The notes: generated by a model from the letters alone, not told the origin. A stretch of DNA of 64,000 nt from Gammaproteobacteria bacterium (GCA_965221955.1 CBDCTA010000004.1:1-64000); one strand, 5' to 3'. Counted from the stretch's first letter, positions 12,160 to 44,068 are shown. Numbers and translations are program-made.

Positions 12160-12177
12160 ATAGTTTGGAGAACCATA

Positions 12178-12375: not shown

Positions 12376-12486
12376 TACTTCGTCTTTTTTAAATCGTTCG
12401 CGTTTACTTTTTATAATTATCTCGTTCTACAAAGCTTAATTTATCTAGTTCGTTCGTTTTAACCTTAAAGTTTAATTGACACCTTA

Positions 12487-15156: not shown

Positions 15157-15161
15157 TTGAA

Positions 15162-17620: not shown

Positions 17621-17697
17621 GCGGGAATAGCTCAGCTGGTAGAGCGCAAACCTTGCCAAGGTTGAGGTCGCGAGTTCGAACCTCGTTTCCCGCTCCA
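17621..17697 (+). tRNA. tRNA-Gly(GCC); one extra A in the anticodon-stem 5' arm
   Basis: GCGGGAATAGCTCAGCTGGTAGAGCGCAAACCTTGCCAAGGTTGAGGTCGCGAGTTCGAACCTCGTTTCCCGCTCCA. Confidence 0.95.
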
Positions 17698-25132: not shown

Positions 25133-26845
25133 ATGCACCCTGTTAGTAGAAATTACAAAATTTTATTTGTTCTATTTTTAGCATTAAATTTTGCTTTAAT
25201 TCTTCCAGCTAATGCCGAAACGCGCATTGCATTAGTTATTGGAAATGGAGATTACTCATTTAGTCCACTTGCTAACCCACCTGAAGATGCAAAGATTATT
25301 ACGGATGCCTTAGGGCAAACAGGCTTTGAAGTAATTCAATTAAAAAATGCAAATCAAAAAAAGATGAAGCAAGCAATTCGTGAATTTTCTGCTCGATTGA
25401 AAGCAGCTAATAATACTGTTGCACTTTTTTATTACGCAGGGCATGGGGTTCAGTTTGAGGGGCGAAATTATTTAATTCCTACTGATGCAGACATTCGTTC
25501 TCAACAAGATGTTGAGTTTGAATCGATAGATGCACAGTGGGTACTAGATACTATTAAAGAAAGCCATAGCGGCTTATCAGTAATTGTTCTAGATGCTTGT
25601 CGAAATAATCCGTTTGCAGCAAGCACACGTTCAGCTACTAGAGGGTTAGTGCGAATGGACGCGCCTCGCGGTTCTATTTTGGCGTATTCCACTTCGCCAG
25701 GTAAAGAAGCATTAGATGGTGAAGGTAGTAACAGCCCATATAGCCATGCATTGGCAAATGCTATAACACAGCCTGGTCTTAAGATTGAAGATGTATTTAA
25801 GCAAGTGCGAAGAGATGTTTTGGCAAGTACGGCTAATTCACAAGTGCCATGGGAGTCCTCCTCGCTAACAGATGATTTTTATTTTTCAGGCTCCTCCAAT
25901 TCATCAGAAGGACAACAAGTTGCAATTCTAAATACTCCAAAGGAAGTTAAGAAAGATACAAAGATTGTAACTTCATCTAAATATCGTTCAGGAGATGTAT
26001 TTACCGATTGTGATCAATGTCCCGATATGGTGGTTATTCCAAGTGGTCAATCAATCATAGGTTCAAATAAAAGTGATCAAGAAAAAGGGCATCTTTCTGT
26101 GGGTGAAAGTGGGGAGTATGAAAAACCTGAATTTACAGTTTCTTTGCCAAACTTTGCTTTAGCAAAAACTGAAATTACACGCGGTCAGTTTAGAAAATTT
26201 ATTGAGTCGAGTAGTTATAAGCCTTCTGCAGGGTGTTGGCTATTTAAAACAATTTTATGGAAGTTTGATAAAAAACGTAATTGGGCCAACCCAGGGTTTA
26301 ACCAAGATGATTATCATCCCGTCGTGTGTGTAAATTGGGAAGATGCAAACGCTTATGCAGAATGGCTGGCGGTCACAACAGGTAAAAAATATCGTTTAGC
26401 AAGTGAAGCTGAGTGGGAATATGCTGCTAGAGGGGGTAAACAAAGTAAATATTTTTGGGGTGAAAGTATTAGTAGGGCATGTGAATATGCCAATGTTTAT
26501 GATGTAAATGGTAAACAAACAATCAAAAACAAATGGCAAAAACATTCTCAATGTAATGATAGCGCAGCGTATACTCGTTCGGTGGCAATGTATAAAGCTA
26601 ATGATTTTGGCTTATATGATATGATCGGGAACGTTATGGAATGGGTCGATGATTGCTGGGTTACTCAACATGATACGTCTAATATTTCGGGAGATAGCAG
26701 AAGGGATGGAGGATGTGCCAAACGTGTTCAAAAAGGTTCACACTTTAATTTTTCGCAATTTAGTTTGAGACCTGCTGCTCGCTGGGCCGATGAGCCTATT
26801 GATCGATCTATCTATGGCGGGTTTCGCGTCATGAGAGAACTATAA
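25133..26845 (+). CDS. Exported caspase-family (C14) protease + FGE-sulfatase (SUMF1-like) domain
   Basis: Signal peptide; RIALVIGN, FYYAGHG (His), LDACRNNPF (Cys); C-terminal HPVVCVNWEDA...RLASEAEWEYAAR...GNVMEWV...GFRV. Confidence 0.88.
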   Translation: MHPVSRNYKILFVLFLALNFALILPANAETRIALVIGNGDYSFSPLANPPEDAKIITDALGQTGFEVIQLKNANQKKMKQAIREFSARLKAANNTVALFYYAGHGVQFEGRNYLIPTDADIRSQQDVEFESIDAQWVLDTIKESHSGLSVIVLDACRNNPFAASTRSATRGLVRMDAPRGSILAYSTSPGKEALDGEGSNSPYSHALANAITQPGLKIEDVFKQVRRDVLASTANSQVPWESSSLTDDFYFSGSSNSSEGQQVAILNTPKEVKKDTKIVTSSKYRSGDVFTDCDQCPDMVVIPSGQSIIGSNKSDQEKGHLSVGESGEYEKPEFTVSLPNFALAKTEITRGQFRKFIESSSYKPSAGCWLFKTILWKFDKKRNWANPGFNQDDYHPVVCVNWEDANAYAEWLAVTTGKKYRLASEAEWEYAARGGKQSKYFWGESISRACEYANVYDVNGKQTIKNKWQKHSQCNDSAAYTRSVAMYKANDFGLYDMIGNVMEWVDDCWVTQHDTSNISGDSRRDGGCAKRVQKGSHFNFSQFSLRPAARWADEPIDRSIYGGFRVMREL

Positions 26846-26893
26846 AATTGTTGTAAATTGGGAACGAGTACACTTAACAAGTTAGAAAAGAAT

Positions 26894-27169
26894 ATGAAAT
26901 TAACATTGCCAATTTTTTCTGCAATAGCGTGCTTATTGTTTGTTACATGTGTCTATGGATTTGGCGGAGGAAAAGGGTATGTTTCAGGCACCTTTTGAGC
27001 TGCAGACCTTGATCGTAATGAGCAGTTAAGCCGTGAAGAAGCAAAGTCAGTTTACAATTTAGCAGATGATCCGATATTTAATCGTTATGATAAAAACCAT
27101 AATGAAAAAATTAATTTCACCTAATTTGCAGAATTTAAGCAGCAGTCACCTTGGATAAGCATAAAATAA
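26894..27169 (+). pseudogene. Secreted two-EF-hand protein with two in-frame stops
   Basis: MKLTLPIFSAIACLLF...F*AADLDRNEQLSREE...DKNHNEKINFT*FAEF; TGA at 26996, TAA at 27122. Confidence 0.65.
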
Positions 27170-27193
27170 TCTTGAAATTACCAGAAGATTTAT

Positions 27194-27814
27194 CTATTCA
27201 ATTTTATGAGAGTGCTTGCCTTGTTTCCAAGGCAATAAAATAGCCAATAGAATTGACAGTATAATAAGTATAGTAAAGTAATTTATTCTGACTTTACTAC
27301 TTGCAGTATGCAACATATACGCATCATACATTCCTGCAACTGTAACTTTTAAAATAATATCTGCCATGGTTGAAGGTTTGTCATTTGGATGGGAATTGCT
27401 AAATGATCCATTTGGATTAATTTCTTGAGGAATAGTTGGTTGATATGCAGGTCCATCAACTACAGTTATAACTCTGCCTTGTGCAAGCGGGATAAAGGCA
27501 AGAAAATTGCTTGCAAGCACTAGAATCAGTAAATGCTTATAGAATAAAGTTTTAAATGATGGAGGTCTCCAGCTAGCAAGCGGCCATCGTAACGACATAG
27601 ATATTAATCCAATACTAAATCCTATTAGACTTAACCCAATTACAAGTAAGAGTAATACGAGGCTTCCATCTATAGATGTAACTAAGTTGTTTAGATCAAT
27701 GGGCGGTAAATTAAATTCTAAATAACCTAGTAATACTGTGCCAGATACAAACAAGCCACACCCAAAAACAAATAATGTCAAGGATGAAAATAATATGTTT
27801 TTAATTACAGACAT
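27194..27814 (-). CDS. Hypothetical multi-TM protein
   Basis: About four hydrophobic segments; divergent from the Tad operon. Confidence 0.55.
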   Translation of the reverse strand: MSVIKNILFSSLTLFVFGCGLFVSGTVLLGYLEFNLPPIDLNNLVTSIDGSLVLLLLVIGLSLIGFSIGLISMSLRWPLASWRPPSFKTLFYKHLLILVLASNFLAFIPLAQGRVITVVDGPAYQPTIPQEINPNGSFSNSHPNDKPSTMADIILKVTVAGMYDAYMLHTASSKVRINYFTILIILSILLAILLPWKQGKHSHKIE

Positions 27815-28031
27815 TTTCTACAGCCTCGTGCTTTTTAAATATCGGCAAGCTCTAGTTTTGATAATTTAATGAAGGTTGCAATGTATTGGTGTACAATTAT
27901 TGATCAGTCTAATATATAAGTATTTGTATTTTATTAAATTGTCAGTTTCTATAGATAAATCAAACTACACAATACAGTATTATTTGATAATGTAGTTGTT
28001 GTAATTTATAACTAGCTTTGAGGTTTGCATA

Positions 28032-28979
28032 GTGAAAATTTGGCTTAAGTCTTTAATACTGATTTCAGTTCTCGTTTTACCAACAGTACATTCTGCCAAT
28101 CGTGGCGAAGTGTATAGCTTGCTCAACCAACTTACTTCAAATTGGCCCGAAGCAAATTTACAAGCCAAGTTAATCCAAACGAATACTTCATCTGATAATT
28201 CTGTAAATTTAGGTGACCATCTTCGTTATTCAACACATGCGTCCGCTCCTGGCCATGTTTATATTATGCATATTGATAGTCACGGAAATTCGAGTTTATT
28301 GTTGCCTAAAAATAGCAGTGATGGAAAAGACTATATTTATCCACCCAATGGAACGCTAATTTCTTCCTTACCATTAGGAAAAGAGTCGCTCTATATATTT
28401 CAAACCGAAAATGAACTGGATTTAAATGGGTTTGGTTTGCAAAAAAGCCAAGATTTTTTACAGTTTGGTGACTCGGTAGAACTTGTTAAAAAGTTTAGTA
28501 ACTTAATTAATGAAAATAAAAAATCTTCTAAAGTTGCGCTAGCTACGATAGATTATTTGGTGGAAGCGCCTGATCAAACTGAATATACAACTCGCGCAAT
28601 CATTCGTCATTTTGTAGATGACGAAGACAAAAATACGAGTTTACCGGCAAGAATTACTTTTGAATTTGATTCTGCAAAGCTTACCAAAGAAGGGATGACC
28701 AATCTTGATACGTTTGGTGAGGCGTTAGTTGCGGATGAGCTTAAGTCAAAAGAATTTATTTTAGCAGGTCATACTGACGATGTAGGATCTGATGAATACA
28801 ATATGGATTTGTCAAAAAGACGCGCGGATGCAGCAAAACAATATTTATCAAATAGTTTTGGTATACAACAAAATCGGTTAATCGTTGAAGCATATGGTGA
28901 AGCAAAACCTTTAGAACCTAATAAAGATGATACTTCGCGTAGTAAGAATAGAAGAGTTGAATTCATTCTTGCTAAATAG
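28032..28979 (+). CDS. Exported DUF4384-like + OmpA C-terminal domain protein
   Basis: Signal peptide; G.VYIMHIDSHG...LLP...G.ESLYIF; ITFEFDSAKL, GHTDDVGSDEYNMDLSKRRA, NRRVEF. Confidence 0.8.
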   Translation: MKIWLKSLILISVLVLPTVHSANRGEVYSLLNQLTSNWPEANLQAKLIQTNTSSDNSVNLGDHLRYSTHASAPGHVYIMHIDSHGNSSLLLPKNSSDGKDYIYPPNGTLISSLPLGKESLYIFQTENELDLNGFGLQKSQDFLQFGDSVELVKKFSNLINENKKSSKVALATIDYLVEAPDQTEYTTRAIIRHFVDDEDKNTSLPARITFEFDSAKLTKEGMTNLDTFGEALVADELKSKEFILAGHTDDVGSDEYNMDLSKRRADAAKQYLSNSFGIQQNRLIVEAYGEAKPLEPNKDDTSRSKNRRVEFILAK

Positions 28980-29012
28980 CATTTCAAAAATATATTTTAT
29001 TTAGGGTAAATC

Positions 29013-29150
29013 ATGTCTGATACGGTTGCATATATCTTAGTTACATCGTTATTTATCATTCCGCTTATTTTTTTAATATTTCTTTTTGTTGATGTCATGT
29101 TTATCTCTCATGCAAATCAATCTAGCATTTTGTCTTTTCCATTTCCCTAA
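29013..29150 (+). CDS. 45-aa single-TM pilin-like peptide (not in the ORF track)
   Basis: MSDTVAYILVTSLFIIPLIFLIFLFVDVMFISHANQSSILSFPFP; AGGGT RBS; ends 9 bp before cpaF. Confidence 0.55.
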   Translation: MSDTVAYILVTSLFIIPLIFLIFLFVDVMFISHANQSSILSFPFP

Positions 29151-29159
29151 TAGATTCAC

Positions 29160-30266
29160 ATGTCTAATTTAATTCACTTATATGATAAGACGTTAGGGCA
29201 CTTATTTTCTCCTATAAAGCATCTGTTAGACGATGATTCTGTCTCTGAGGTTATGATTAACGGGTTTGATGAGATTTATATTGAACAAAAAGGGTTATTA
29301 CACAAAACCGATGCAGTTTTTCAAAGTGAACAAGAATTAGAAGCAGCGATTAGGAACGTTGCACAATTTGTTGGCAAAAGATTAACTGAGGATGAGCCCA
29401 GTATTGAAGCGAGATTGCCGGATGGGTCACGTGTGCATATTGTTCAACCTCCAGCTGCACGAAAAGGTCTTTGTGTTGCAATCAGAAAGTTTTCTAAACA
29501 TAAATTAAGCATTGATTCGTTAATTGAATATGGCTCATTAACTGATTCTTCTGCAGAATTTTTGAAATTATGTGTTTTGCTTGCAAAAAATATTATTGTT
29601 TCAGGTGGCACAGGTTCAGGTAAGACAACGTTGTTAAATTGTCTTTCTTCTTATATCAGTGGTAATGAGCGTATTATCGTTCTTGAGGATTCGTCAGAAT
29701 TACAATTACAGCAAGAGCATGTTGTACCTTTTGAAGCGCAAGCCCCTAATCGAGATGGGCGTGGTGGAATATCAATCAGAGACCTATTTAGAGCTTCGTT
29801 GCGAATGCGGCCCGATAGAATTGTAGTAGGGGAGTGTCGTGGTGGTGAAACCATTGACATGATTCAAGCAATGACTTCTGGTCATTCAGGCTCGCTGTCC
29901 ACATGTCATGCAAATACACCATTAGATGCATTGAGCAGATTAGAAGTTATGTCTTTGATGGGTGATGTGGAAATCCCACTGCATGCACTCAGAACGCAAA
30001 TTTCTTCTGCGATAGATTTGATCGTTCAAATTAACCGTTTTCATGATGGCAAACGTAAAATCACTGCTATTTCTGAGGTATTGGGGTTAACGGATGACGG
30101 GAAATATCAGGTCAAGGATCTGTATGCATTGGACTATAAAGAAGGGCAGGCAGCAAGTGACGCTGAATTAGTGCCTACAGGGGAAATGCCCCTATTTAAT
30201 CAAGAAGTTGTGCAATCTAATTTAGAGAGTTTAGTCGATAATTCTAAGGTAGTATGGAGCCTTTAA
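29160..30266 (+). CDS. cpaF: CpaF/TadA pilus ATPase (short form)
   Basis: [49 protein letters not shown]. Confidence 0.9.
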   Translation: MSNLIHLYDKTLGHLFSPIKHLLDDDSVSEVMINGFDEIYIEQKGLLHKTDAVFQSEQELEAAIRNVAQFVGKRLTEDEPSIEARLPDGSRVHIVQPPAARKGLCVAIRKFSKHKLSIDSLIEYGSLTDSSAEFLKLCVLLAKNIIVSGGTGSGKTTLLNCLSSYISGNERIIVLEDSSELQLQQEHVVPFEAQAPNRDGRGGISIRDLFRASLRMRPDRIVVGECRGGETIDMIQAMTSGHSGSLSTCHANTPLDALSRLEVMSLMGDVEIPLHALRTQISSAIDLIVQINRFHDGKRKITAISEVLGLTDDGKYQVKDLYALDYKEGQAASDAELVPTGEMPLFNQEVVQSNLESLVDNSKVVWSL

Positions 30267-30308
30267 GCTATACTTTATGTTTCATTTGAGTTTAAACAGG
30301 AGTTAATC

Positions 30309-30512
30309 ATGAGTCTGTGTAAAAACCCAAAACACAAATCACGTAATCAAAAGGGAGAAATGCCAGTTGGCACAATTTTAGTCATTGCATTGATTGTGAT
30401 TCCTTTAGTGTTCTTATTAATTGCCGCCAGAGATAAGATTGTTCCGATGTTCACGACTGACATTCAAGAAGTGACAGAAGACGATGGCAATCAACGACCT
30501 ACTATCCCTTAA
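30309..30512 (+). CDS. Atypical Flp-like major pilin candidate
   Basis: Basic leader ending QKG, then EMPVGTILVIALIVIPLVFLLIA; 67 aa; AGGAG RBS. Confidence 0.6.
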   Translation: MSLCKNPKHKSRNQKGEMPVGTILVIALIVIPLVFLLIAARDKIVPMFTTDIQEVTEDDGNQRPTIP

Positions 30513-30628
30513 TTCTTTATAAAATCGTTTTTAACTAAAACCTTTAGAGTAAAACAAGTATGACTTGATTAGAGTTTGAAGTTCGTAAGCATTCATAATA
30601 AATATAATTAAAAAAATAATTTAAGAAA

Positions 30629-31489
30629 ATGAAAGGGGAGTTTGTTTCTACACTCATTCGTGCTGATTCGTTTTGGTCAGAAACCTTTCTGTATGTTTTT
30701 TTGACTATTTTTTTACTCATCTCATTATTATTTTTCATAAAGCTCGCAGGAAAAAAAGTCTCGTCAGAAAAACTTGTTCATTTACAGCAATCTGGTGCCG
30801 CTGCAGCCGTTGATTTTGTTTTAACATTTCCCATCTTTATGGTTGTTTTGTTTCTCACCATTCAGTTTGCATTGGTCACTATTGCTTCAATTCATGTGCA
30901 CTATGCGGCATATAGTGCTGCGCACAGTGCTAGAGTTCATTATTTTGACACCTCTACTGATGCGGTTCGAAGTATTAAACATGCGCAAGATCTTTTAGAG
31001 CAGCGCTTTGGAATTGGGTTCATTAATTTAGAAAATGCATTGACTTTTAAAAAAGCAAATGAATCCAAGGCAGAGCAAAAAGCACATGATGCGGCAAAAA
31101 TGGCATTGATTGCAGTAGGGTCACCTAAAAAAGATATTGTCAGTATTCCAAATACTGGCTCAAATGCATGGCAAGGAATGGATACGTATCTTCCTGCCTT
31201 AGCTCAGCAAGATGGAACTTCTGGCACAAATGTATTTCGCCGCAAAGCAAGTTATGCCTTTGATGATAGCAATCTAACACTTGATGTAGATTTAGATATA
31301 AATGTAGCTCAAGCAATTGTGGGTGGACTTACAGGCAAAAATATTTTTCAGGTCACGGAATGGCCAGTGAAAGCTGAAGTTACTTTTAAATATATTCTTG
31401 CGGTGCCATTAGCGGGAAAGATATTAGGCACTAAAGGTTCTCATGGATTTTACTATCGTGATTTGCACGCAACTATTTCATTGCTTTAA
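30629..31489 (+). CDS. TadE-like pseudopilin with an extra N-terminal TM helix
   Basis: QSG|AAAAVDFVLTFPIF...HYAAYSAAHSARV. Confidence 0.75.
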   Translation: MKGEFVSTLIRADSFWSETFLYVFLTIFLLISLLFFIKLAGKKVSSEKLVHLQQSGAAAAVDFVLTFPIFMVVLFLTIQFALVTIASIHVHYAAYSAAHSARVHYFDTSTDAVRSIKHAQDLLEQRFGIGFINLENALTFKKANESKAEQKAHDAAKMALIAVGSPKKDIVSIPNTGSNAWQGMDTYLPALAQQDGTSGTNVFRRKASYAFDDSNLTLDVDLDINVAQAIVGGLTGKNIFQVTEWPVKAEVTFKYILAVPLAGKILGTKGSHGFYYRDLHATISLL

Positions 31490-31491
31490 GA

Positions 31492-32997: not shown

Positions 32998-33571
32998 ATT
33001 TAAACAATATGGAATTGCGTCTGTAGAAGCAGTGTTTATTTTTCCTGTTCTACTTTTGCTCTTTTTAGTCATGTTGCATATTACGAAAGCAATGATGACA
33101 AATATTGATGTTATAAATGAATCAAGATTGTCCGCTTGGGGGGATGCGATCGGAATATTTGGCGATATTAGAATTTATAAGCCTGTAGCTAAGAGTGGGG
33201 CAACTATAGATACGTCGATATCAAGTGTTAACCCTCCTAACTCATCGAGTCTAATTGATGATATGAGATCGGCTGGCTCTAGAAAATACAATAATTCAAA
33301 TTCACTTACTAAAATTTTATATAACCAAGACCTTGGCATTAAGTTAGCAAGCTCTTCAACAAGTTATAACACAACGCGTGGTAAGTTAAATTGGTCTTTT
33401 GATGTTGAAAAAAGTTATGCAATAGTACCAACACCTATTTGGACTGCAGACGATATTCCATACGGTTATGATAAATACTTAAAGGATACATTGGATAGCA
33501 AATGTCTATTTACAAGAATGTTTCCTAAAGTGCCACCTTATCGAACACCAGATTGTAAGAAATGGTTATGA
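32987..33571 (+). CDS. TadE/TadF-like pseudopilin
   Basis: YG|IASVEAVFIFPVLLLLF...SRLSAW. Confidence 0.7.
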   Translation: MHTRFKQYGIASVEAVFIFPVLLLLFLVMLHITKAMMTNIDVINESRLSAWGDAIGIFGDIRIYKPVAKSGATIDTSISSVNPPNSSSLIDDMRSAGSRKYNNSNSLTKILYNQDLGIKLASSSTSYNTTRGKLNWSFDVEKSYAIVPTPIWTADDIPYGYDKYLKDTLDSKCLFTRMFPKVPPYRTPDCKKWL

Positions 33572-34383
33572 GACCGAAACATATTTGCTGTGCGAATCTA
33601 ATTGTTATTTTATTTGCATGCATTATATTAATGAGAGCGGACATTGTTAAAGCGGATGTCTATATGGATTTTTCTGAGAGTTTGCTTTCTACGGCTAGTT
33701 TGCTCAACGCAAATACTTCTGATTCTCAAGACAGGCACATTATCTTAAATGGTGTGCCGCTCACTACACGTATTTATAAAGTTAACATAAAGCATAATCG
33801 GGCAATTGAAAATGTCACAAATTATTTTCATAAGCCAAAACATTACGAAAAAGTTACACAAGACGAGATATCTCAGATACTTTCTGAGCCTACAGTGGTT
33901 GTGACCAAGGAGTGGTCTGCGCTATACAACATAAATCTTGATGACGCTCATGCGAGGTCAGATGTGAATTTTATTACCTTTGCTAAAAAAATCTCTCACA
34001 ATGAATCTCAAATCTTTGAACTGAAATTTGACAATGCTGAGGATATGAAAGACTTGTTATTTAAAATGCAAGGTGATGTTACATGTAATGAAGTTTTTTC
34101 AATACAGCGGATCCCAAATTCAAGGAGGAAGTTTTGTTTAACAGAACTTACTGAAAGCAAAATTCTTTTTCAAATTGTTATTTATGAAGGGAAGGGCAAC
34201 CCTGTAAATCGTGCTAATCACTATCAAATTGAGCTGCTTAATCAGGATTACCGTTTGGATATGATTGATACCCAATCACATGATAGAGCAATTATTTTTG
34301 CATCGAACGAGATTAGTAGGACGACTATCTTTACATATAAAATGAGTAACAAGGTACTAGATGTTGTTCAGTTTCAATTTTAA
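33562..34383 (+). CDS. Exported hypothetical protein in the Tad operon
   Basis: N-terminal hydrophobic signal; overlaps the upstream gene. Confidence 0.6.
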   Translation: MVMRPKHICCANLIVILFACIILMRADIVKADVYMDFSESLLSTASLLNANTSDSQDRHIILNGVPLTTRIYKVNIKHNRAIENVTNYFHKPKHYEKVTQDEISQILSEPTVVVTKEWSALYNINLDDAHARSDVNFITFAKKISHNESQIFELKFDNAEDMKDLLFKMQGDVTCNEVFSIQRIPNSRRKFCLTELTESKILFQIVIYEGKGNPVNRANHYQIELLNQDYRLDMIDTQSHDRAIIFASNEISRTTIFTYKMSNKVLDVVQFQF

Positions 34384-34406
34384 AAAGTAAAACAATAAGG
34401 CTTCAT

Positions 34407-35198
34407 ATGAATAAGTTATTACTAGTAATTGGTTTGGTTCTTGGGCTTGTCACGGCATGGCTATTGTATAGCTATACCTCTAAGCTTGAGCGAGCACAAG
34501 TAAGTGCGCCCTTTATTAAATTAAGTTCATCTATTTCACTTTCTACTGGTGAAACTCTTGAATCTAATCACTTAGAATCAATTTCGTTACCCGAAAAGTT
34601 TGCTTCACTCGCAAGTTTTGCAATACCTGATAATCAAGATAATCGAAATTGGATAATAGGAAAGCGTGTAAATAAAGATGTTAAAGCAGGATCGCTATTG
34701 CAATATGATTTTTTTAGCGATGAGCCAGAAGAAAGATTTTCTGCAACAATTGAAAAAAATAAGCGTGCAATGACGATTCCCGTTAGCCCAAGCAGCTCAG
34801 TATCGTATTTTGTAGAACCAGGTAGTAGGGTTGATTTGGTCGGTACTCTACGATTAGATCTGAGTGAGGATGTACAAGTGCCTGTACCCTCCAGCATTCG
34901 TGACAATATCGCTACTGAAAGCACTACAATCCCTCAACTTGTATCAAGAAGTGTAACAAAGACTTTATTGCAGAATGTAAAAGTTTTAGCTGTAGGTAGA
35001 GCGACTACACGCGGAAGCTATTTAGGTGTCGCAGATGATGGATATAGGAATATTACACTTGAAGTTACACCATATCAGGCTGAAAAACTAATATTCGCAA
35101 TGTCTAATCTTGTTAGTGAACCGATTATTCTGCTAAGAAATCCTGTAGACGATACAGTTGAAGACATACCTGTTGTGAATTGGAAAGACTTAAACTAG
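34407..35198 (+). CDS. cpaB: Flp pilus assembly protein CpaB/RcpC
   Basis: TM + SAF domain; KRAMTIPV...PGSRVDL...LLQNVKVLAVG...TLEVTP.QAEKL...LRNP.D. Confidence 0.9.
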   Translation: MNKLLLVIGLVLGLVTAWLLYSYTSKLERAQVSAPFIKLSSSISLSTGETLESNHLESISLPEKFASLASFAIPDNQDNRNWIIGKRVNKDVKAGSLLQYDFFSDEPEERFSATIEKNKRAMTIPVSPSSSVSYFVEPGSRVDLVGTLRLDLSEDVQVPVPSSIRDNIATESTTIPQLVSRSVTKTLLQNVKVLAVGRATTRGSYLGVADDGYRNITLEVTPYQAEKLIFAMSNLVSEPIILLRNPVDDTVEDIPVVNWKDLN

Positions 35199-35207
35199 AA
35201 AATTGCG

Positions 35208-37109
35208 ATGGAACTTTCAATCTTTAATACATTAACGGGTGAGAAAAATACTCATCCGATTTTGTCGAAAGAGATACGGATCGGTCGAAATCCAAATCAA
35301 TCATCCGATACGAATGGTGAGGATGAGCTTGATGGCGTACAAAAAATTACATTGGCAAGCAAAATTGTTTCTAAGCATCACCTCACATTACATCATGCAG
35401 ATGATACTTGGTTGCTCAAGCATCTCGGCACTAATGATACGTTTATCAATGAACAAGAAGTATCTCATGGGCAAGTGCTTACGATAACAAGTGAAGATGA
35501 AATAAAGTTTGGAGAATTTTTATTAAATATTGCTAAAGACAAAATCAGTCAAGAGTTTGAGAGTCCTGAGCAAGAAACCAGATTGCTTGAGTTAGAGAAA
35601 TCAATTCATGAGCAATTATTATCGGCGTTAGATTTACGTAGAAGTGGAGCCAGTATTAATCTAGAGGATGAAGCGACAAAAAATAATATTGTAAAGTTTT
35701 TGAATGATATTGTAGCGAATCGATTAGAAGAAATAAGTGAAGATGAAATCAAAAATATTACAAGGACGGCCATACTTAGAAAATTAACTCATGAAGTAAC
35801 AGCAGTTGGTGGTAATACATCTAAGAACACTTGGGATTATGCAATATCGTTTGATAGTTCATCTTTAAATAAACAGCTCCATGATATGTTGAAATCCATT
35901 GCAAGCCAATTAGGTTTAGCAATGAATAAGAAATCTTTAGAAGAGGATTGCAAAAATATTGATCTAAATTTTGATGATATTTATAAAAATTATGAACTGG
36001 AGTTTTCACAAGGTGTAAAACGAGATATTGCTGAAAGTTTTATTAAAAAAAATATTCTCGATTTGATATTTGGATTAGGGCCTCTACAAGACTTGATGGA
36101 AATGGACAGTGTCTCAGAGGTGATGGTTGTATCGAAAGATAAGATCTTTATCGAAAAATTTGGAATTGTAGAGGATTCAAGACGAAAATTTATTTCTGAT
36201 GCGCTCTTACTAGCTACGATAGAAAGAATTGTATCTCCAATTGGTAGACGTATAGATAAGAGCTCTCCAATGGTCGATGCACATTTGCCTGATGGATCTA
36301 GGGTGAACGCCATAATTCCTCCTCTGGCGCTAAAAGGTCCATGTGTAACGATTCGCAAGTTTGCACAAGTTCCACTCACGATTGATGACTTAATTGGATT
36401 TGAAGCCTTAACAAATCAGGTTTCAAAATTTTTGCAAGCCAGTGTGGCAGGTGAAAAAAATATTGTAATTTCGGGTGGTACCGGCTCTGGTAAAACGACT
36501 TTACTCAATTGTGTGTCCGCTTTTATTCCGCGTAAAGATCGAATCGTTACTATTGAAGACACTGCAGAATTACAGTTGAAACAGGAACATGTCGTTTCCC
36601 TTGAATCTAGGCCCGCAAATATGGAAGGCAAGGGTGAAATAACCATTCGTGATTTAGTTAAAAATGCTTTACGAATGCGTCCAGATCGAATTGTAGTAGG
36701 TGAGTGCAGAGGTGCTGAAGCTTTAGACATGTTGCAAGCCATGAATACTGGTCACGATGGATCAATGACTACTGGCCATGCAAATTCACCTGAGGACATG
36801 ATGAGAAGGTTGGAAGTGATGGTGTTAACCGGTACAGATATGCCAATTTCTGCAATACGTGAACAAATTGTCTCTGCAGTTGATTTGGTTGTTCAGCTTA
36901 ATCGATTATCAGATGGCAGTAGAAAAATTACTTGCATATCAGAAGTTATAGGTATTGATGAAAACACGGGTGAAATCATTACAGAAGATATTTTCAAACT
37001 TAAACAAGTTTTTGGATCAACAAGCCAAATTTTTCATACAGGCTATATTCCAACTTTTGTGCAAGATTTACTAAATAAAGAAATCATGACGTTGGACACA
37101 TTTTTTTAA
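35208..37109 (+). CDS. FHA-domain-fused CpaF/TadA ATPase
   Basis: N-terminal IGR...VSKHH...TNDTFIN (FHA); [40 protein letters not shown]. Confidence 0.9.
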
Positions 37110-37958
37110 ATGAGTATTTTATTGCCAATATTGGGTTTTTTTGCTGTATTGCTACTAGCGTTGTCATTGCCAAGCGCTTTAGAATCGTTGGCAAAAAATT
37201 TAGCTTCTACGGCAAAAGAAAAAACAGGTATTGCAACGAATACACAAAGTGTATTAGGTATTCATCCTGATAAATTATTTCGTGTTATAGGTATTGTGGC
37301 TGTAGTTATTGCCATACTTGTTTGGCTTGTAACGAACAGCATACTGATAAGTCTGATATTTTTTGCCATCACATTTTTTATTCCAAAATTGATTCAAAGC
37401 TATAACCAAAGTATTCGTCTCATTGAGTTTGATGAGCGTTTGCCAGCCGCGTTGGATCAAATGAGCAGTTCTGCTAAAGCAGGTATGAGCTTGGCGCAAA
37501 CAATTGAAGAAGTCGGTTTAAATTCTCCTAAGCCTATTAATGAAGAATTTTTAACAATGCATCAAGAGCATAAATTAGGTACTGATCTGAGTCAGACTAT
37601 TATAAACGCACGTCAAAGGATAAAAAGCAAACCCTTTTCATTAGTTGCTTCCGCTCTGTTGGTAAATATTGACAAAGGTGGAAATCTTCCTGATGCATTA
37701 GAAACACTCTCTATTTCGTTAAAAGAAATTTGGCGTTTGGAACAAAAGCTTATTACTTCATCAGCTGAAGGTAGAAAAGCAATGTGGGTGATCAGTGCTG
37801 TTCCTATTTTTATCGCCTTGCTCGTGTTTGCGTTACAACCTGAACTAATTTCAGGGCTAACGGGGTCATTGTTGGGGATTACTATACTAGTAATTGCAAT
37901 ATTGACCTATGTTTTGGGTTTGTATTGGTTAAGAAACATACTTAACCAGGAAATATAA
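37110..37958 (+). CDS. tadB: TadB (T2SS-F family) inner-membrane platform protein
   Basis: FDERLPAALD...AGMSL, GGNLPDALE, SAEGR. Confidence 0.85.
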   Translation: MSILLPILGFFAVLLLALSLPSALESLAKNLASTAKEKTGIATNTQSVLGIHPDKLFRVIGIVAVVIAILVWLVTNSILISLIFFAITFFIPKLIQSYNQSIRLIEFDERLPAALDQMSSSAKAGMSLAQTIEEVGLNSPKPINEEFLTMHQEHKLGTDLSQTIINARQRIKSKPFSLVASALLVNIDKGGNLPDALETLSISLKEIWRLEQKLITSSAEGRKAMWVISAVPIFIALLVFALQPELISGLTGSLLGITILVIAILTYVLGLYWLRNILNQEI

Positions 37959-37960
37959 CG

Positions 37961-38845
37961 ATGTTATCTACACTACTTCCTATATTGGGCGGCATTTCAA
38001 TATTTTTGCTTAGTTTTGTATTGATAACATGGTTTTACCGTTATGCAATAGATGTTGAAGTAGATGAAATTAATAAGAATGTAATTTCTGGAACCTTCCT
38101 TGAGCCGATCGTCGCAAGATTAAGTAAGTTTAATCATTTTTTGCAGTTTGATAATTTAGCCAGTTCAATAGATCGAAAACTAGTTTTAGCAGGCAACCCT
38201 GGGAAAGGGTTAAATGGCTATGAGTATATTTCTATTACTCAACTCATAGGTCTTCTTGTATTTGTCATTTTTCTCTTAGCACTTATATCTATGGGCATGT
38301 TTTCTTCTTTTACATTTATTTTGGTGATGATTATTACCATAATCGTCATTTGGGTATCGTTTGAGTGGCTAAATAATCAAGTTTCTTTTAGAAGGAAAGA
38401 AATTTCTAGATTATTTCCTTATTTTCTCGATCTCAGCGTGATGACCATGGAAGCAGGCACGAGTTTTCTTGAGACAGTAGATATTTACATTCGTGATAAT
38501 CCTAAAAATGCATTAACAGAAGAACTAACCATGTTTGCATCTGAAGTTAATATGGGTACGACTTTTGAAGAAGCGTTAATTAATTTTGAACACCGTATCA
38601 GCGCAGAAGAGGTCCAAAACACCTTGCGAGCTATACGGCAAGGTCAAAAAATGGGCACACCTATGGCCAATATACTGCGTGATCAAGCTGAAACCGTTCG
38701 CTTTAAAAGAACTCAAAATGCTGAGAGAGCTGCAGAAGAAATGAAAGTAAAACTGCAAGGTCCAGCAATGTTACTAATGGTTTCTGTATTGTTAATAATT
38801 TTAGGCCCGGCATTGGTTGAAGTGATAAACAGTGGGGTTTTCTGA
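37961..38845 (+). CDS. tadC: TadC (T2SS-F family) inner-membrane platform protein
   Basis: PYFLDL...MEAG.SF, GTPMA.ILR.QA...AERAA..M.VKL. Confidence 0.85.
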   Translation: MLSTLLPILGGISIFLLSFVLITWFYRYAIDVEVDEINKNVISGTFLEPIVARLSKFNHFLQFDNLASSIDRKLVLAGNPGKGLNGYEYISITQLIGLLVFVIFLLALISMGMFSSFTFILVMIITIIVIWVSFEWLNNQVSFRRKEISRLFPYFLDLSVMTMEAGTSFLETVDIYIRDNPKNALTEELTMFASEVNMGTTFEEALINFEHRISAEEVQNTLRAIRQGQKMGTPMANILRDQAETVRFKRTQNAERAAEEMKVKLQGPAMLLMVSVLLIILGPALVEVINSGVF

Positions 38846-39681
38846 TGGCAGCAACAACAATTATTAATCCAACATTAATAGCCTTATCTGGCCCGCTTAA
38901 AAGAAAAAAGGTACTTGTATCAAAAGACAGCTTTGTTTTAGGCAACAATCACACTGCGGATTTAAAAGTACCTGGAGAACGTGTTGCTAAAATTCATGCT
39001 GTTATAGAAAAAGATCAATTTGGCACATGGCAAATAATCTCTAAGTCTGATGCTGGAGTTCTTGTAAACAAGCAACACGTTGAAAAAGCAACATTAAATA
39101 TTGGTGATTTAATTCAAGTTGGTGAAACGACGTTATTCAAATTTGAAGGTAAGGTAGCGAAAACAAGCAGAGATAGAAATAAAGAAGTTTTACAATCTTC
39201 TGAAGGTGTAAAAATTAAAAAACCAGTTTTATATCTTCTTGGAGCATATTTATTGTTAATGGCTGGTGTTGGTATATATCTATCATTAGATTTTTCAACA
39301 GAAACTGAGACAGGATTATCGAATGAATACGTTAGCAGTGTATTAGACTCTACAAAAGAGTATCTAATCAATTTAACACCTGACGCAAAAACTAATTCTT
39401 CTGATATTTTGTTTGATAAAAATAGAGATATTTCAGCTACTTATTACAATATTAAAAATTCAACGATTTCTGGCACAAAAAATAGTCTCGTGGATAGTTT
39501 GATTGCTGAATTAGAAAATTCATTTTTTAGAGCCTGGAAGTTAGAACGGACAAAAAATTATCAAGAAGCGTTAGCAGAATATCAAAGAATATTGAATCTT
39601 GTGCCTGACAATCAAGCAGTTACTACTAAAGTTGCAAGCTGGCGTATTAATGTTATTAAGGATAAGAGCCGTAAAAGATGA
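38845..39681 (+). CDS. Degenerate FHA domain - TM - C-terminal TPR-like protein
   Basis: FVLGN...VAKIHAVI...GVLVN...L.IGDLIQVG; one TM; YQEALAEYQRILNLVPD. Confidence 0.7.
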   Translation: MAATTIINPTLIALSGPLKRKKVLVSKDSFVLGNNHTADLKVPGERVAKIHAVIEKDQFGTWQIISKSDAGVLVNKQHVEKATLNIGDLIQVGETTLFKFEGKVAKTSRDRNKEVLQSSEGVKIKKPVLYLLGAYLLLMAGVGIYLSLDFSTETETGLSNEYVSSVLDSTKEYLINLTPDAKTNSSDILFDKNRDISATYYNIKNSTISGTKNSLVDSLIAELENSFFRAWKLERTKNYQEALAEYQRILNLVPDNQAVTTKVASWRINVIKDKSRKR

Positions 39682-41849
39682 AAGAGAAAACACAATTAGG
39701 TAATCGATATTTAATTGAAGACACTAGGGTAGGTGGATACTCAATCGTTTATAAAGCTTTAGATGAAAAAATTAATCGAACTGTTGCTATAAAAACACCT
39801 AATGAGCTCGTTCTTAGTAGTGAAAAAAACTTAGAAAAGTTTATTGAAGAAGCAAAAAAACTCGCCAAAATTAATCACCCCAATGTAATTGAAGTTTTGC
39901 ATTTTTATGAAGCAGGTGAGCTTGATGATAAGTGTCATATTGTCATGGAATGGATTTCTCAGACATTGGCTGAGCGGATCCAAGATGATGCTTTAGATAT
40001 CGATACAAAGATTTCTATCATTAATAAAACGCTGCAAGGTCTTTTGCACATTCATCAGTTAGGGATTATTCATTCTGATCTTAAGCCAGCTAATATTTTT
40101 GTGAGTGATGACAATTCAAGAGTAAAAATCGGTGATTTGGGTATTGCTAGACATATTGATGAAGACCATACCAGCATGGCAACCTTTAAATATGGTGCGC
40201 CTGAGCATTATCGAACGGATGTAAACATAGATTCGCGGGCAGATATTTATTCAGCAGGTTTATTATTCTATGAGTTACTCGTTGGCGAGAGTAAATTTAA
40301 ACAAATCTTCCAAGATATTTATTCTGATGATAATAATAAGAAACAAGATACACGTTGGTTAAATTGGCATCTAGATAAAAGTCGTGTTTTGCCTCCACTT
40401 ACAGAAGTAACAACTGGTATAAGCGAAAAGTTCAGCGCAGTTATAGAAAAAATGACTGCTAAAGATCTAAACGAGCGCTATGAAAAAATTGAAGAAATCT
40501 TACAAGATTTAGATTTCGAACATCATGCTTCCATTACACCTATTCAACCTATTGAACTTGAATCTACAAAGAGCAAAAAAAATATCTGGTTAAGTCTAGC
40601 AATCGCTTTTGCAGTTATTTTTGTATCTGCAGGAGTTATATTTCTTTATTTGCCAGATGACAAACCAGCAATATCTGCTGAAGAAGTTGTAGCGATGGCA
40701 AAAATGGCTAAAGAAGCTAAGGAGGCTGCAATTGTTGCTGGTGCCAATGATCCAATGATAAACGAATTTTCACAGGGTAATAACTTTTATGATCAAGCAA
40801 AAGGTGCTTATGATAAAGGTGAAAATGAATCACCTCTTCAGTTGTTTACTTCTGCAAGAGATCACTACATAAAATCTGAGCAGCTTGCCTATCAACGTAC
40901 CTATAGTGAACTTCAAAACCACATCAATGTTTTAGAGGCAAAGGTGCAAATGTACAAACTCAATCATGAGAGTCAGCCATTAAAGTCAGGATATTTAATG
41001 TTAGAGCAAGCAGGAAAGCATTTTGAAAACCAACAATATTTAGAGGCTTCAAATTCTTTGGCGCAAGCTAAAGTTGCATTTGAAGAATCTATTACGACCA
41101 TGCCAAGAAAAATACAGGTTGGAAGTACAGCAGAACAAATTGATGCGGCATTAATTTTGTGTAAACGTTTTGATCAAGATTGTGTTCGTGAGTGGTATGA
41201 AACTGAGAAAGCAAAAGAAGTAGAGCTTGAACCATTTGAAATGGATGAGCATGAAGTTTCCTACGCTCAATTTCTAAAGTTTATCGATGCGACCGCTTAT
41301 CAAACAGATGCTGAGAGGAAAGGATTTTCTTACGTTTGGAATGGGTACAAATCAGTAAAAACAAAAGGTGTTAATTGGCGCAATGCAAATGCAGGTGGAA
41401 ATGAAAATTTTCCAGTGACTCACATTAGTTTTAATGATGCCAAACAATTCTGTGAATGGCGTGGGTCTCGTTTGCCTACAGAAGCCGAATGGGAATACGC
41501 TGCAAGGGGAATAGAAGGGAATACTTTTCCATGGGGTAACAATTGGGATCCAAGAAAGATTTATTGGCCAAACGAAAAACCAGAACAAGCTCGTATACAA
41601 AATATCAAATCTTATCCTGGAGCAATTTCAGGCTCAGGAGGCTATGATTTTTCAGGCAGTGTTTGGGAATGGGTTGAAAAAACTGAAGATCCCAACGATG
41701 GCTTATTAAAAGGAGGTTCAATATTTGAGACGAATCCAGCAAATTTGCGAACATCCACCCAAAGAATCAATGACTTAAATCTTTCCAATAACGACGATGG
41801 CTTTCGTTGTGTGAAATCTACACAAAAGTGGCCAGAGAGCTATAATTAA
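39678..41849 (+). CDS. Membrane Hanks-type Ser/Thr kinase with periplasmic helical region and FGE-sulfatase domain
   Basis: GGYSIVYKA, VAIK, IHSDLKPAN, DLG, YGAPE, DIYSAG; TM; PVTHISF.DA..FC...RLPTEAEWEYAARG...SVWEW...GFRCV. Confidence 0.9.
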   Translation: MKEKTQLGNRYLIEDTRVGGYSIVYKALDEKINRTVAIKTPNELVLSSEKNLEKFIEEAKKLAKINHPNVIEVLHFYEAGELDDKCHIVMEWISQTLAERIQDDALDIDTKISIINKTLQGLLHIHQLGIIHSDLKPANIFVSDDNSRVKIGDLGIARHIDEDHTSMATFKYGAPEHYRTDVNIDSRADIYSAGLLFYELLVGESKFKQIFQDIYSDDNNKKQDTRWLNWHLDKSRVLPPLTEVTTGISEKFSAVIEKMTAKDLNERYEKIEEILQDLDFEHHASITPIQPIELESTKSKKNIWLSLAIAFAVIFVSAGVIFLYLPDDKPAISAEEVVAMAKMAKEAKEAAIVAGANDPMINEFSQGNNFYDQAKGAYDKGENESPLQLFTSARDHYIKSEQLAYQRTYSELQNHINVLEAKVQMYKLNHESQPLKSGYLMLEQAGKHFENQQYLEASNSLAQAKVAFEESITTMPRKIQVGSTAEQIDAALILCKRFDQDCVREWYETEKAKEVELEPFEMDEHEVSYAQFLKFIDATAYQTDAERKGFSYVWNGYKSVKTKGVNWRNANAGGNENFPVTHISFNDAKQFCEWRGSRLPTEAEWEYAARGIEGNTFPWGNNWDPRKIYWPNEKPEQARIQNIKSYPGAISGSGGYDFSGSVWEWVEKTEDPNDGLLKGGSIFETNPANLRTSTQRINDLNLSNNDDGFRCVKSTQKWPESYN

Positions 41850-41887
41850 AATAATAAATACAAGTACCAAGGATGAGGCGTGGGATT

Positions 41888-43168
41888 ATGAAACTACTTA
41901 AATTTTTCATCGTACTTTTGTTGGGGACTTCTTTTACACATGTCATTGCAAATGAAAAAATCGCATTAGTAATCGGTAACACCGATTATGAAGTGTCACC
42001 GTTGAGAACTGCGGTCAATGATGCCACGGCCTTTTCACAAGCATTGTCAGAAATAGGTTTTCAAGTCGATCTTCAAACCAATACTAATCAGCAAGAAATG
42101 GAAGCTGCAGTACAGTCATTTGGACGATCTATTCAATCAGGAGCAATCGGTTTATTTTATTATGCGGGTCATGCGGTACAGCACAATGGCGAGAACTATC
42201 TCGTACCGGTTAATGCAATTTCATCTATAACTGCACCTGAACATTTACGTTATAAAACTGTGCCGCTTGGTTATGTGCTTGGAGTGGTGAATCAATCGGC
42301 AAGTGATTTAAATGTTGTCATATTGGATTCCTGTCGTAATTCTCCATTTAAATCCTTTTCGCGTGATTTAACGAGAGGAATTACACGTATGCCAAGTTCT
42401 GAAGGGACACTCATAGCATATTCAACAGCTCCTGGAAAAGTAGCATTAGATGGTAGAGAAAATGATCAACATAGCCCTTACACGAAGTCCCTTTTAAAGC
42501 ATATCAAACAACCTGGACTAACAATTGAGCAGGTACTCAAAAAAGTTCGAGCAAGCGTGAAAAAAGAAACAAATGGACAACAAACACCTTGGTATGAAGC
42601 TTCCATTGATGGCGATTTTTATTTTATAAAAGATGAAGGAAGCGGGACTAAAAAAGTAATCAAAGTGGCTACCGTTGAACCTCCTAAAAAAGTTATTACG
42701 CCAGAAAAGGAAAAAAAAGTTATTAAACAAGAAACTCTTGAGTCAACCAAACAATTGTCCTATATCGATGTGGAAGGCGCTAACGAAGGCAAACGACTCA
42801 ATGCCGCGCAAACCAAACAATTAGTGATTGGAAATACCTTATATCCAACAAGCGGTTCTTTCAAAGGCGCTCATATTTATGTTGACCATGATGGACGTGC
42901 GTATTATCACTTTATTACTAAAGGAGAACGCGTCATTGAAGGTATTACTTCATGGACGTTTACAGGTGCAAAATTTTGTATCGATCTTCATAAAATGGGG
43001 ACTAATGCCAATCTGTCTGAAAAAGAGGTGTGTTATCGGTTTATTAAACAAGCCAATCAAGAGTACAAACTACAAATTACGCAAATTAAATTGTTCAGTT
43101 ATCATAGAGAATCGCCTGTAGGAAAGTATATTTTTACTAAAGTTATGAAAGGTCGTGAAGGTGTATAG
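41888..43168 (+). CDS. Exported caspase-family (C14) protease with unrecognised C-terminal domain
   Basis: Signal peptide; KIALVIGN, FYYAGHA, LDSCRNSPF, HSPYT, QTPW. Confidence 0.85.
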   Translation: MKLLKFFIVLLLGTSFTHVIANEKIALVIGNTDYEVSPLRTAVNDATAFSQALSEIGFQVDLQTNTNQQEMEAAVQSFGRSIQSGAIGLFYYAGHAVQHNGENYLVPVNAISSITAPEHLRYKTVPLGYVLGVVNQSASDLNVVILDSCRNSPFKSFSRDLTRGITRMPSSEGTLIAYSTAPGKVALDGRENDQHSPYTKSLLKHIKQPGLTIEQVLKKVRASVKKETNGQQTPWYEASIDGDFYFIKDEGSGTKKVIKVATVEPPKKVITPEKEKKVIKQETLESTKQLSYIDVEGANEGKRLNAAQTKQLVIGNTLYPTSGSFKGAHIYVDHDGRAYYHFITKGERVIEGITSWTFTGAKFCIDLHKMGTNANLSEKEVCYRFIKQANQEYKLQITQIKLFSYHRESPVGKYIFTKVMKGREGV

Positions 43169-43591: not shown

Positions 43592-44068
43592 TTACTTTGC
43601 ATTATCTTGTACGTGCTTGCATACACATCTTTTAACTTTTTCCCATATTACAAGATCATCATTTGTAAGATAGGACTCAATATTCTCTAAAATGCCTATG
43701 TAATTCTTGTAGAGTTCTTGCGCAACTTGAGTGCCTTTTTTTGTGATTTTAAGTTGAATGACCCGACGATCATTCACATCATGATGACGGTTGATTAAAC
43801 CTTGTTTTTCTAGAGTATCTAAATGTCGAGTGATGGTCGTTGGATCTGCGTCAATTGTTTTAGAAATACGGCTGGGCGTATCTGCTCGTTTAAGATAGAT
43901 AATTTTTAGCACTAACCATTGAGTTAGGGTAAGTTTTGCTTGTTTTAAAGGCACTTTTAAATGAAGTTTTGCTTTATTTACTATGCTTAAACTTAGCAAT
44001 ACAGATGTTGCATTTATATCGATACATGCAGAAGATGTCGCATCGTGCTTTTTATCAATGTCTTCCAT
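43592..44068 (-). CDS. MarR family regulator, copy 1
   Basis: LTLTQWLVL...DPTTITRHLDTLEKQGLI.R...DRRV...IT.KG. Confidence 0.88.
   Translation of the reverse strand: MEDIDKKHDATSSACIDINATSVLLSLSIVNKAKLHLKVPLKQAKLTLTQWLVLKIIYLKRADTPSRISKTIDADPTTITRHLDTLEKQGLINRHHDVNDRRVIQLKITKKGTQVAQELYKNYIGILENIESYLTNDDLVIWEKVKRCVCKHVQDNAK

Follow-up and report, generated by a model that had tools for sequence, protein, structure and literature searches.

What kind of machine is encoded when Tad-type pilus genes stand in one block with a membrane Ser/Thr kinase, FHA-domain proteins and two exported caspases, and with no secretin gene? The question is raised by a stretch of 64,000 nucleotides from a Gammaproteobacteria bacterium (GCA_965221955.1, CBDCTA010000004.1:1-64000), which corresponds to C4:1-64000 of genome G000 and is called the window throughout; the block studied lies at 25133-43168 (~18 kb). 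This block is probably a Tad-type (type IVc) machine of a Kil-related lineage that is characterized by an FHA-fused CpaF ATPase (FHA-CpaF) and by the possession of two ATPases, and whose gammaproteobacterial branch would have lost its secretin and gained a wired signalling module. The new part is a rare gammaproteobacterial sublineage that is secretin-less, carries the kinase gene after the gene of an FHA-transmembrane (FHA-TM) protein, and has caspase genes nearby.

A preliminary description, made from the sequence of the window, had put the block forward as a candidate new system. Comparison with other loci shows that it is not a wholly new one: FHA-CpaF is the published KilF, or class III CpaF, design (PMC8460266, PMC12019362), and the locus is sister to two-ATPase, secretin-bearing loci of Myxococcota. 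Statements on published work refer, here and below, to excerpts of the papers concerned.

Gene content of the block

Sixteen open frames on one strand, plus one opposite-strand frame, occupy 25133-43168. All the genes of the preliminary description were recovered as open frames at their places, and Pfam backs most of the domain assignments. The 273-aa exported protein at 33562-34383 is designated by the short name expUnk.

25133..26845, +: exported caspase (C14) with a putatively non-catalytic FGE-like (C-type-lectin-fold) domain, "caspase-FGE"; Pfam Peptidase_C14 145 bits, FGE-sulfatase 186 bits
27194..27814, -: transmembrane (TM) open reading frame (ORF), outside the system; matches no family in Pfam, NCBIfam or PADLOC
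28032..28979, +: predicted periplasmic OmpA-like peptidoglycan anchor with DUF4384-like N-domain; Pfam OmpA 88.7 bits, DUF4384 26.4 (cut-off 27)
29013..29150, +: 45-aa TM peptide, upstream of the second ATPase; no family match
29160..30266, +: CpaF1, second short CpaF-type ATPase, 368 aa, without FHA; Pfam T2SSE 186 bits
30309..30512, +: non-canonical pilin candidate, 67 aa, single helix; no Pfam or NCBIfam match
30629..31489, +: TadE-like minor pilin, 286 aa; Pfam TadE 30.2 bits
31492..32997, +: TadG-like large minor pilin, 501 aa; Pfam Tad (PF13400) 32 bits
32987..33571, +: TadE/F-like minor pilin, 194 aa; Pfam TadE 22.6 (cut-off 22.9), G/xxxxE-type N-terminus in the translation
33562..34383, +: expUnk, conserved, probably periplasmic accessory protein, 273 aa; no family match
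34407..35198, +: CpaB/RcpC; Pfam RcpC 71 bits, NCBIfam pilus_cpaB 113 bits (cut-off 71)
35208..37109, +: FHA-fused CpaF ATPase (KilF-type, class III); Pfam FHA 39.5 and T2SSE 200 bits, PDB CpaF 343 bits
37110..37958, +: TadB platform protein; Pfam T2SSF 61.6 bits
37961..38845, +: TadC platform protein; Pfam T2SSF 44.8 bits
38845..39681, +: FHA (YscD-like)-TM-periplasmic helical/TPR protein, "FHA-TM-TPR"; FHA 38 and Yop-YscD_cpl 33.7 bits, TPR_2 below cut-off
39678..41849, +: Hanks Ser/Thr kinase with one TM segment and a periplasmic region ending in a putatively non-catalytic FGE-like domain, "kinase-FGE"; Pkinase 153 bits, FGE-sulfatase 132 bits
41873..43168, +: exported caspase 2 (C14) with a private C-terminal domain; Pfam C14 136 bits

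Spacing between the 15 genes from 28032 to 43168 ranges from an 11-base overlap up to 116 bases, in agreement with the tight, co-oriented arrangement described beforehand, and the kinase gene overlaps the preceding FHA-TM-TPR gene by 4 bases. Scans of the sequence gave 49 promoter-like sites where 72.8 were expected, and 11 terminator-like sites where 10.8 were expected. Pfam contains no family for the 45-aa TM peptide, the 67-aa pilin candidate, expUnk or the opposite-strand TM gene. The last of these is present in the window as had been described, but does not belong to the system. In L005, the relative locus of the same-genus genome G016, the caspase-FGE gene is followed by the OmpA gene with no other gene in between: the former is interrupted by a contig end, and its final 34 codons immediately precede the latter. 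The frame at 27194-27814 was therefore considered as a local, G000-specific insert of ~650 bp, absent from the orthologous interval.

Phylogeny of the two motors and gene order

Relatives of the block were collected by a scan of one genome per species, which returned 80 CpaF loci, and by a metagenome scan. The whole FHA-CpaF was matched in 3 of the 80 loci, namely L005 (same genus, 88%), L006 (from a Methylococcaceae metagenome-assembled genome, MAG; 49%) and L016 (from a Granulosicoccaceae MAG; 49%); L093, L094/L095 and L096 were among the matches listed in the metagenome scan. Domain profiles were built from the window's own proteins, and all 161 Tad loci were annotated with them. The iterated profiles drifted, with 56 matches growing to 143 for TadE and 34 to 172 for TadG, and were left out of the counts. 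Phylogenies were produced with FastTree on 172 ATPase domains and with IQ-TREE (quick, LG+G4) on 74 rows, and the two trees agree.

The FHA-CpaF of the window belongs to a clade of eight loci (window, L005, L006, L016 and L093-L096), which received a support of 100 in the Shimodaira-Hasegawa-like approximate likelihood-ratio test (SH-aLRT) and is sister (92) to 11 FHA-CpaF loci, mostly from Myxococcota MAGs. The short second ATPases, CpaF1 included, form one clade of their own (SH-aLRT 99) with an inner branching that mirrors that of the main motors, which indicates that the two-ATPase design predates the split of the clades. The secretin profile separates the two groups completely, with 0/8 matches in the clade of the window versus 11/11 in the sister loci. 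In the latter, a short secretin gene lies between CpaB and FHA-CpaF, and a Pfam check of five genomes confirms it for L008 and L010; CpaB abuts FHA-CpaF in 7 of the 8 loci of the window's clade, which leaves no room for a secretin at this place. The secretin-less state is kept across clade members whose ATPases are only 41-49% identical.

Gene order was compared over the same loci. The window, L005, L006 and L016 share the order expUnk, CpaB, FHA-CpaF, TadB, TadC, FHA-TM, kinase, with identities of 20-88%, and the order in L094 and L095 is CpaB, FHA-CpaF, TadB, TadC, FHA protein, kinase, short second ATPase, followed in L094 by an OmpA gene. In 6 of the 8 clade loci (window, L005, L006, L016, L094 and L095), the kinase gene starts inside the FHA-TM gene or immediately after it, and a counterpart of FHA-TM follows TadC in the sister clade too. 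Among the other proteins of the block, the OmpA-like protein is 74% identical in L005, caspase 2 68% and the caspase-FGE ortholog of G016 78%. The pilin candidate is kept at the same place in L005 (80-91%) and L016 (43%), and the 45-aa TM peptide is 82% identical in L005, with a weak N-terminal match just upstream of CpaF1 in L016.

The OmpA gene of L094 also adjoins a gene for an SLT lytic transglycosylase with LysM domains (14815-16296, -), a possible peptidoglycan-remodelling partner for a secretin-less machine.

Search for a secretin

The term "secretin-less" of the preliminary description was upheld for the locus and, as regards a Tad-type secretin, for the genome. The Pfam Secretin model has no match in C4:1-64000, and no Tad-type secretin was found in the G000 genome (96.6% complete). 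Three other matches were obtained in this genome. GspD (C4:78693-80828, 579 bits), followed by GspE, lies 37 kb downstream of the block on the same contig; it is intact, and is the only intact secretin of G000. A PilQ-type secretin is in pieces (C29:28929-29800), with stops within the Secretin match, and the longest of these pieces, an ORF of 200 aa, reaches 216 bits with the PilQ model. Finally, a 289-aa secretin-like ORF (C28:10925-11794) lies amid housekeeping genes (DUF7931, NUDIX, KdsB) and was rejected as the missing pore on account of these neighbours and of the lack of any link to the block. Short secretin-like proteins (289-313 aa) recur in two other gammaproteobacterial genomes (G057:C84:7152-8063 and G056:C1:151412-151729).

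By Pfam, the 16 genes contain no ParA-like (TadZ/CpaE) or Peptidase_A24 domain, and neither TadD nor RcpB was found in the locus. The block could alternatively encode an ordinary surface Tad/Flp adhesion pilus, which would make use in trans of the T2SS secretin GspD and of the general prepilin peptidase; the kinase would then be just one more regulator, and the caspases unrelated periplasmic proteases. The intact GspD-GspE pair on the same contig is in favour of this explanation, as are the single PilD-type peptidase of the genome and the sharing of prepilin peptidases that is known between systems. Against it, the phylogeny of secretins suggests little exchange between systems, and the loss of the Tad secretin has been tied to monoderms. 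The lack of TadZ/CpaE, TadD and RcpB together with that of a Flp-family pilin, and the persistence of the secretin-less state over the ATPase divergence given above, also speak against an ordinary pilus, which is considered unlikely.

The exported protein expUnk, whose gene immediately precedes that of CpaB in the window, L005, L006 and L016, was examined as a secretin substitute and rejected. Only 8 such proteins were found in a 5.8-billion-protein database. The AlphaFold2 (AF2) model, with a predicted local distance difference test (pLDDT) value of 74.5, corresponds to a two-domain alpha/beta periplasmic protein with no barrel or secretin fold. The C-terminal domain of the model resembles PA1624 (Z 10.9) and DcrB (Z 8.5) according to VIA-align, and also BamC-like folds; Foldseek gave template-modelling scores of only 0.2-0.3, to T6SS (type VI secretion system) lipase immunity proteins and RseB, and the best score in the ESM Atlas was 0.82-0.83, with no family. 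Complex prediction for CpaB with expUnk gave a score of 0.25 against a mark of 0.32. The expUnk profile was matched to the gene upstream of CpaB in the secretin-bearing sister loci (probability 82.5%, E 9.8e-6, 222 columns), and because of this link expUnk is predicted to be an old accessory part of the lineage and not a replacement of the secretin.

Kinase, FHA domains and caspases

The translation of the kinase contains the Lys, catalytic Asp and DxG motifs. In the FHA domain of the motor, the phosphothreonine-binding residues Arg27, Ser55 and Asn76 are invariant in the four gammaproteobacterial orthologs. The Arg is missing from the FHA domain of FHA-TM-TPR in all three aligned gammaproteobacterial copies, and the window copy also lacks the Ser and the Asn; this protein looks like a phospho-independent scaffold, as far as these residues tell. 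As regards the kinase-FHA switch proposed in the preliminary description, only the FHA domain of the motor keeps the Arg/Ser/Asn set, which FHA-TM-TPR has lost.

Both caspases carry a signal peptide and an intact His/Cys dyad in their translations, and the OmpA-like protein likewise starts with a signal peptide. The FGE-like domains of caspase 1 and of the kinase score far below the NCBIfam equivalog cut-offs, and neither translation has a Cys in the C-terminal segment that we take to hold the two catalytic cysteines of formylglycine-generating enzymes (FGE). As both lack these cysteines, the two domains are, on the basis of sequence, putative binding modules and not enzymes; FGS/FGE domains have a C-type-lectin fold and are found as C-terminal binding modules in bacterial conflict systems. 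The occurrence of the same FGE-like domain type on the kinase and on caspase 1 suggests that a single ligand triggers phosphorylation as an output in the cytoplasm and proteolysis as an output in the periplasm. Among solved structures, the FGE part is closest to PvdO, FGE and PorK, the caspase part to MALT1, and the motor to Caulobacter CpaF (343 bits). The periplasmic part of the kinase has six full-length orthologs (P0010-P0015) besides the window copy. The C-terminal domain of caspase 2 has one other database protein only; in the ESM Atlas this part gave a best score of 0.82-0.83 with no family, and the AF2 model of caspase 2, obtained from a 3-row alignment, has a pLDDT of 37, too low for use.

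Four gammaproteobacterial genomes, which represent three families, combine this Tad subtype with kinase, FHA, caspase and OmpA genes, and one metagenomic lineage does so for the kinase and OmpA genes. This agrees, in small numbers, with the co-occurrence on which the preliminary description had made its reading depend. C14 genes are found near 4/4 gammaproteobacterial loci versus 1/153 other Tad loci. The same gene set could be made of two modules lying side by side, a Tad-like machine and a module of caspase, FGE, kinase and OmpA genes for envelope surveillance or for conflict (defence or programmed death), which travel together with no mutual regulation. Caspase-FGE proteins (33 of 671 bacterial metacaspases carry FGE; PMC3501461) and kinase-FGE proteins (2465 matches to the periplasmic part, many of them named kinase/FGE) are common alone, and the known role of FGS/FGE domains in conflict systems would suit such a module. 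The nearest NCBIfam model of the caspases is of the EACC1-associated type, below its cut-off, and the position and type of the caspase differ among L006, L016 and the window, with none in L094. A mere association would nevertheless leave aside the kinase gene, which overlaps or abuts the FHA-TM gene after TadC in six loci of two deep branches, and the motor, which bears an FHA domain that looks functional from its residues and would need a kinase. The rarity of C14 genes near other Tad loci, the persistence of exactly the caspase-FGE-to-caspase-2 block when both flanks change (see below), and the result of PADLOC on the block (generic kinase, caspase and MotB-like matches, none system-specific) point in the same direction, and two independent modules are regarded as improbable.

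A second kinase beside pilus motors exists in G000: at C4:92873-97443 (-), a pair of PilT-like ATPase genes precedes an ORF of 801 aa with a Hanks kinase domain as its C-terminal half.

Mobility, selection and points against the reading

The block lies in a variable region (17621-43592) with tRNA-Gly at one end (17621-17697) and MarR genes at the other. In the complete same-genus genome G008, tRNA-Gly directly adjoins a MarR and a TPR gene, with no Tad block; in the window, the 26 kb between tRNA-Gly and MarR consist of an ABC-transporter piece and the Tad block. The ABC-transporter segment (18.7-24.6 kb) sits elsewhere in G008, and no integrase was detected among the ORFs scanned in 17.9-24.6 kb. 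Two tandem MarR-family genes are located just downstream of the block (43592-44068 and 44482-44952, -), where G008 has one. The sequences on either side of the block in G016 bear no relation to those in the window. The segment from caspase-FGE to caspase 2 behaves as one transferable operon-like unit, because its flanks are unrelated in two same-genus carriers and it is absent beside tRNA-Gly in a third genome. Of 56 genomes of the order, 3 gave a match to the FHA-TM-TPR protein, which was full-length in two cases and weak and limited to FHA in the third. Further downstream, an AAA_22-FHA gene (50695-51984, +) is 74-89% identical in 5/5 same-genus genomes searched; it was rejected as a part of the system, being a core gene of the genus of which 4/5 genomes are without the block.

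Several observations weigh against a single wired machine related to Kil. Concerning conservation, the kinases of L094 and L095 have no FGE domain, and no caspase was found in the 17 kb of L094. Beyond the genus the caspase linkage is loose: the caspase of L016 is a divergently transcribed C14-Sel1 protein, and two ORFs without Pfam family (264 and 315 aa; 10757-12536) separate kinase-FGE from the caspase in L006. The independent lineages are few, with ~3 gammaproteobacterial families and 2-3 metagenomic lineages. In L005, the TadE1 and FHA-TM-TPR orthologs are each split in two overlapping frames (3236-4085 and 11297-12222), which reflects either an assembly error or early decay. Concerning the machine itself, a surface filament cannot be assumed without a secretin. 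The pilin candidate (30309-30512) has Glu at +1, right after a conserved Gly, and not the processing motif G/XXXXE of Flp pilins (PMC12075869); it has no match to any pilin family, and Flp_Fap has no match anywhere in G000. No prepilin peptidase was found in the locus, the sole A24 peptidase of G000 (PilD-type) being encoded on C29, and no PP2C phosphatase either, the only PP2C_2 matches of G000 being at C17:37536 and C20:6295. Finally, the trees contain no M. xanthus sequence and place the block next to Myxococcota MAG loci, so that kinship to Kil proper rests on the architecture shared with these loci.

The pair of ORFs in L006 had been considered as a sigma/anti-sigma pair, an assignment that was dropped because it had no support from Pfam.

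Part of these observations would also be expected of a decaying remnant, which became non-functional after the loss of its secretin and is now eroding. The locus is without secretin, canonical pilin and peptidase, its distribution is patchy (2/56 genomes of the order, counting full-length FHA-TM-TPR), two genes are split in G016, and a G000-specific insert lies inside the block. Erosion is however difficult to reconcile with the 16 intact frames of the window, with the intact catalytic and binding motifs, and with the selection measured between the window and L005: nonsynonymous divergence (dN) is 0.09-0.45 while synonymous divergence (dS) is saturated, and in the 7 of 11 gene pairs for which it is computable, including the kinase, caspase 2 and OmpA, dN/dS is 0.03-0.17. 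The same secretin-less order moreover recurs in lineages at 41-49% ATPase identity, and decay appears very improbable.

Comparison with known systems

The Kil system of M. xanthus (Seef et al. 2021, PMC8460266; Herrou et al. 2025, PMC12075869) shares with the block a Tad-like core with an FHA-fused CpaF, CpaB, homologues of TadB and TadC, and TadE/F/G-like minor pilins, which are here only predicted to form a complex. An additional FHA protein is present and TadZ is lacking in both. The two systems differ in that KilC, a short secretin, is essential in Kil whereas the window block has no secretin, and in that a single ATPase is stated for Kil whereas the block has two. The pilin candidate of the window is without G/XXXXE, and the operon additionally encodes a Hanks kinase with an FGE-like sensor, an OmpA-like anchor and a pair of periplasmic caspases. 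The host, a small-genome marine gammaproteobacterium, is outside the taxa to which Kil-like systems appear to be restricted. A contact-triggered upstream phospho-cascade read by many FHA domains is expected for Kil (PMC8460266); the word "kinase" has 0 occurrences in PMC8460266, PMC12075869 and PMC12428579, a count that does not extend to the supplementary gene tables of Seef et al.

The uncultured Myxococcota two-ATPase loci (L008, L010, L013-L015, L023, L099 and L100) are closer to the block. Both ATPase paralogues are orthologous, and the order expUnk-like gene, CpaB, FHA-CpaF, TadB, TadC, FHA protein, short second ATPase is the same. Unlike the window block, these loci keep the short secretin between CpaB and FHA-CpaF (11/11), have a kinase within 10 kb in 3/11 cases only, in none of them right behind the FHA-TM gene, and are without caspase and FGE domain. 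The canonical Tad/Flp systems (Caulobacter Cpa, Aggregatibacter Tad) have in common with the block a CpaF-type ATPase, the split TadB/TadC platform, CpaB and TadE/TadG. The block differs from them by the lack of the RcpA/CpaC secretin, TadZ/CpaE, TadV/CpaA, TadD and a Flp-family pilin, and by the presence of an FHA domain on the motor and of a second motor.

A similar logic is found in the H1-T6SS pathway of P. aeruginosa (PpkA, Fha1, PppA, TagR), where the post-translational activation of an envelope machine involves a membrane Hanks kinase with a periplasmic part, together with an FHA reader; for the block, this logic is predicted from the genes. TagR has an FGE-like fold. In contrast with this pathway, the machine of the window is a type IV filament, the motor itself carries the FHA reader, and both the kinase and a caspase carry an FGE-like domain. 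The T6SS-like threonine-phosphorylation switch that had been suggested in the preliminary description is consistent with the presence of a kinase and an intact FHA reader, but its phosphatase arm finds no counterpart, no PP2C gene being present in the locus. The same parallel with the T6SS was drawn for Kil by Seef et al. (PMC8460266).

The first gene of the block has the C14-then-FGE organization, with an N-terminal signal or TM segment, of the metacaspase-FGE-sulfatase proteins of Asplund-Samuelsson et al. 2012 (PMC3501461), a paper that mentions no pilus link ("pilus", 0 occurrences). Neither a kinase-FHA-CpaF link nor a caspase-linked Tad locus nor a secretin-less Tad in a diderm was retrieved by a literature search, which likewise did not find the second motor of the two-ATPase Tad lineage described.

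Proposed working of the machine

From the domain content and the conserved gene order, we infer the following working. The membrane Hanks kinase would sense a periplasmic ligand or the state of the envelope through its putatively non-catalytic FGE-like domain, and would then phosphorylate itself or a partner on threonine. The FHA domain of the motor would read this phosphothreonine, by which FHA-CpaF would be recruited to, or activated on, the TadB/TadC platform, with FHA-TM-TPR acting as a presumed phospho-independent scaffold. The small pilin would be polymerised by the machine after priming by a TadE/TadG/TadE complex, and the short second ATPase may be a specialised partner motor, for instance for retraction or priming. 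The two periplasmic caspases, one of which bears the sensor domain type of the kinase, may cut periplasmic or envelope substrates within the same response, and the OmpA-like protein would tie the assembly to peptidoglycan. The filament would either stay periplasmic or exit through a pore encoded elsewhere, GspD being the only intact secretin.

The preliminary description saw the caspases as processing enzymes or effectors and considered contact-dependent attack as a possible use of the machine, and both ideas are conjectural. More speculatively, and with considerable doubt, a pore-less diderm Tad-like filament, a lectin-like receptor kinase that switches it on via a phosphothreonine reader on the motor, and the periplasmic caspases could form one envelope device, used for contact-triggered attack, breaching of the envelope or programmed self-lysis.

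Significance

Whatever its use, the block is at odds with the rule by which diderm type IV filament machines possess a secretin, and the two-ATPase Tad lineage gains a gammaproteobacterial branch. The periplasmic caspase-FGE proteins gain a concrete, conserved partner machine, and the position of the kinase gene in the operon, after the FHA-TM gene, makes the link from kinase to FHA-CpaF testable with four or five proteins. If a pore-less, kinase-switched filament does work together with the caspases, it would represent a distinct sub-class of type IV filament machines, and with such a device the Kil family would have its first system whose operon itself contains the long-sought activating kinase.

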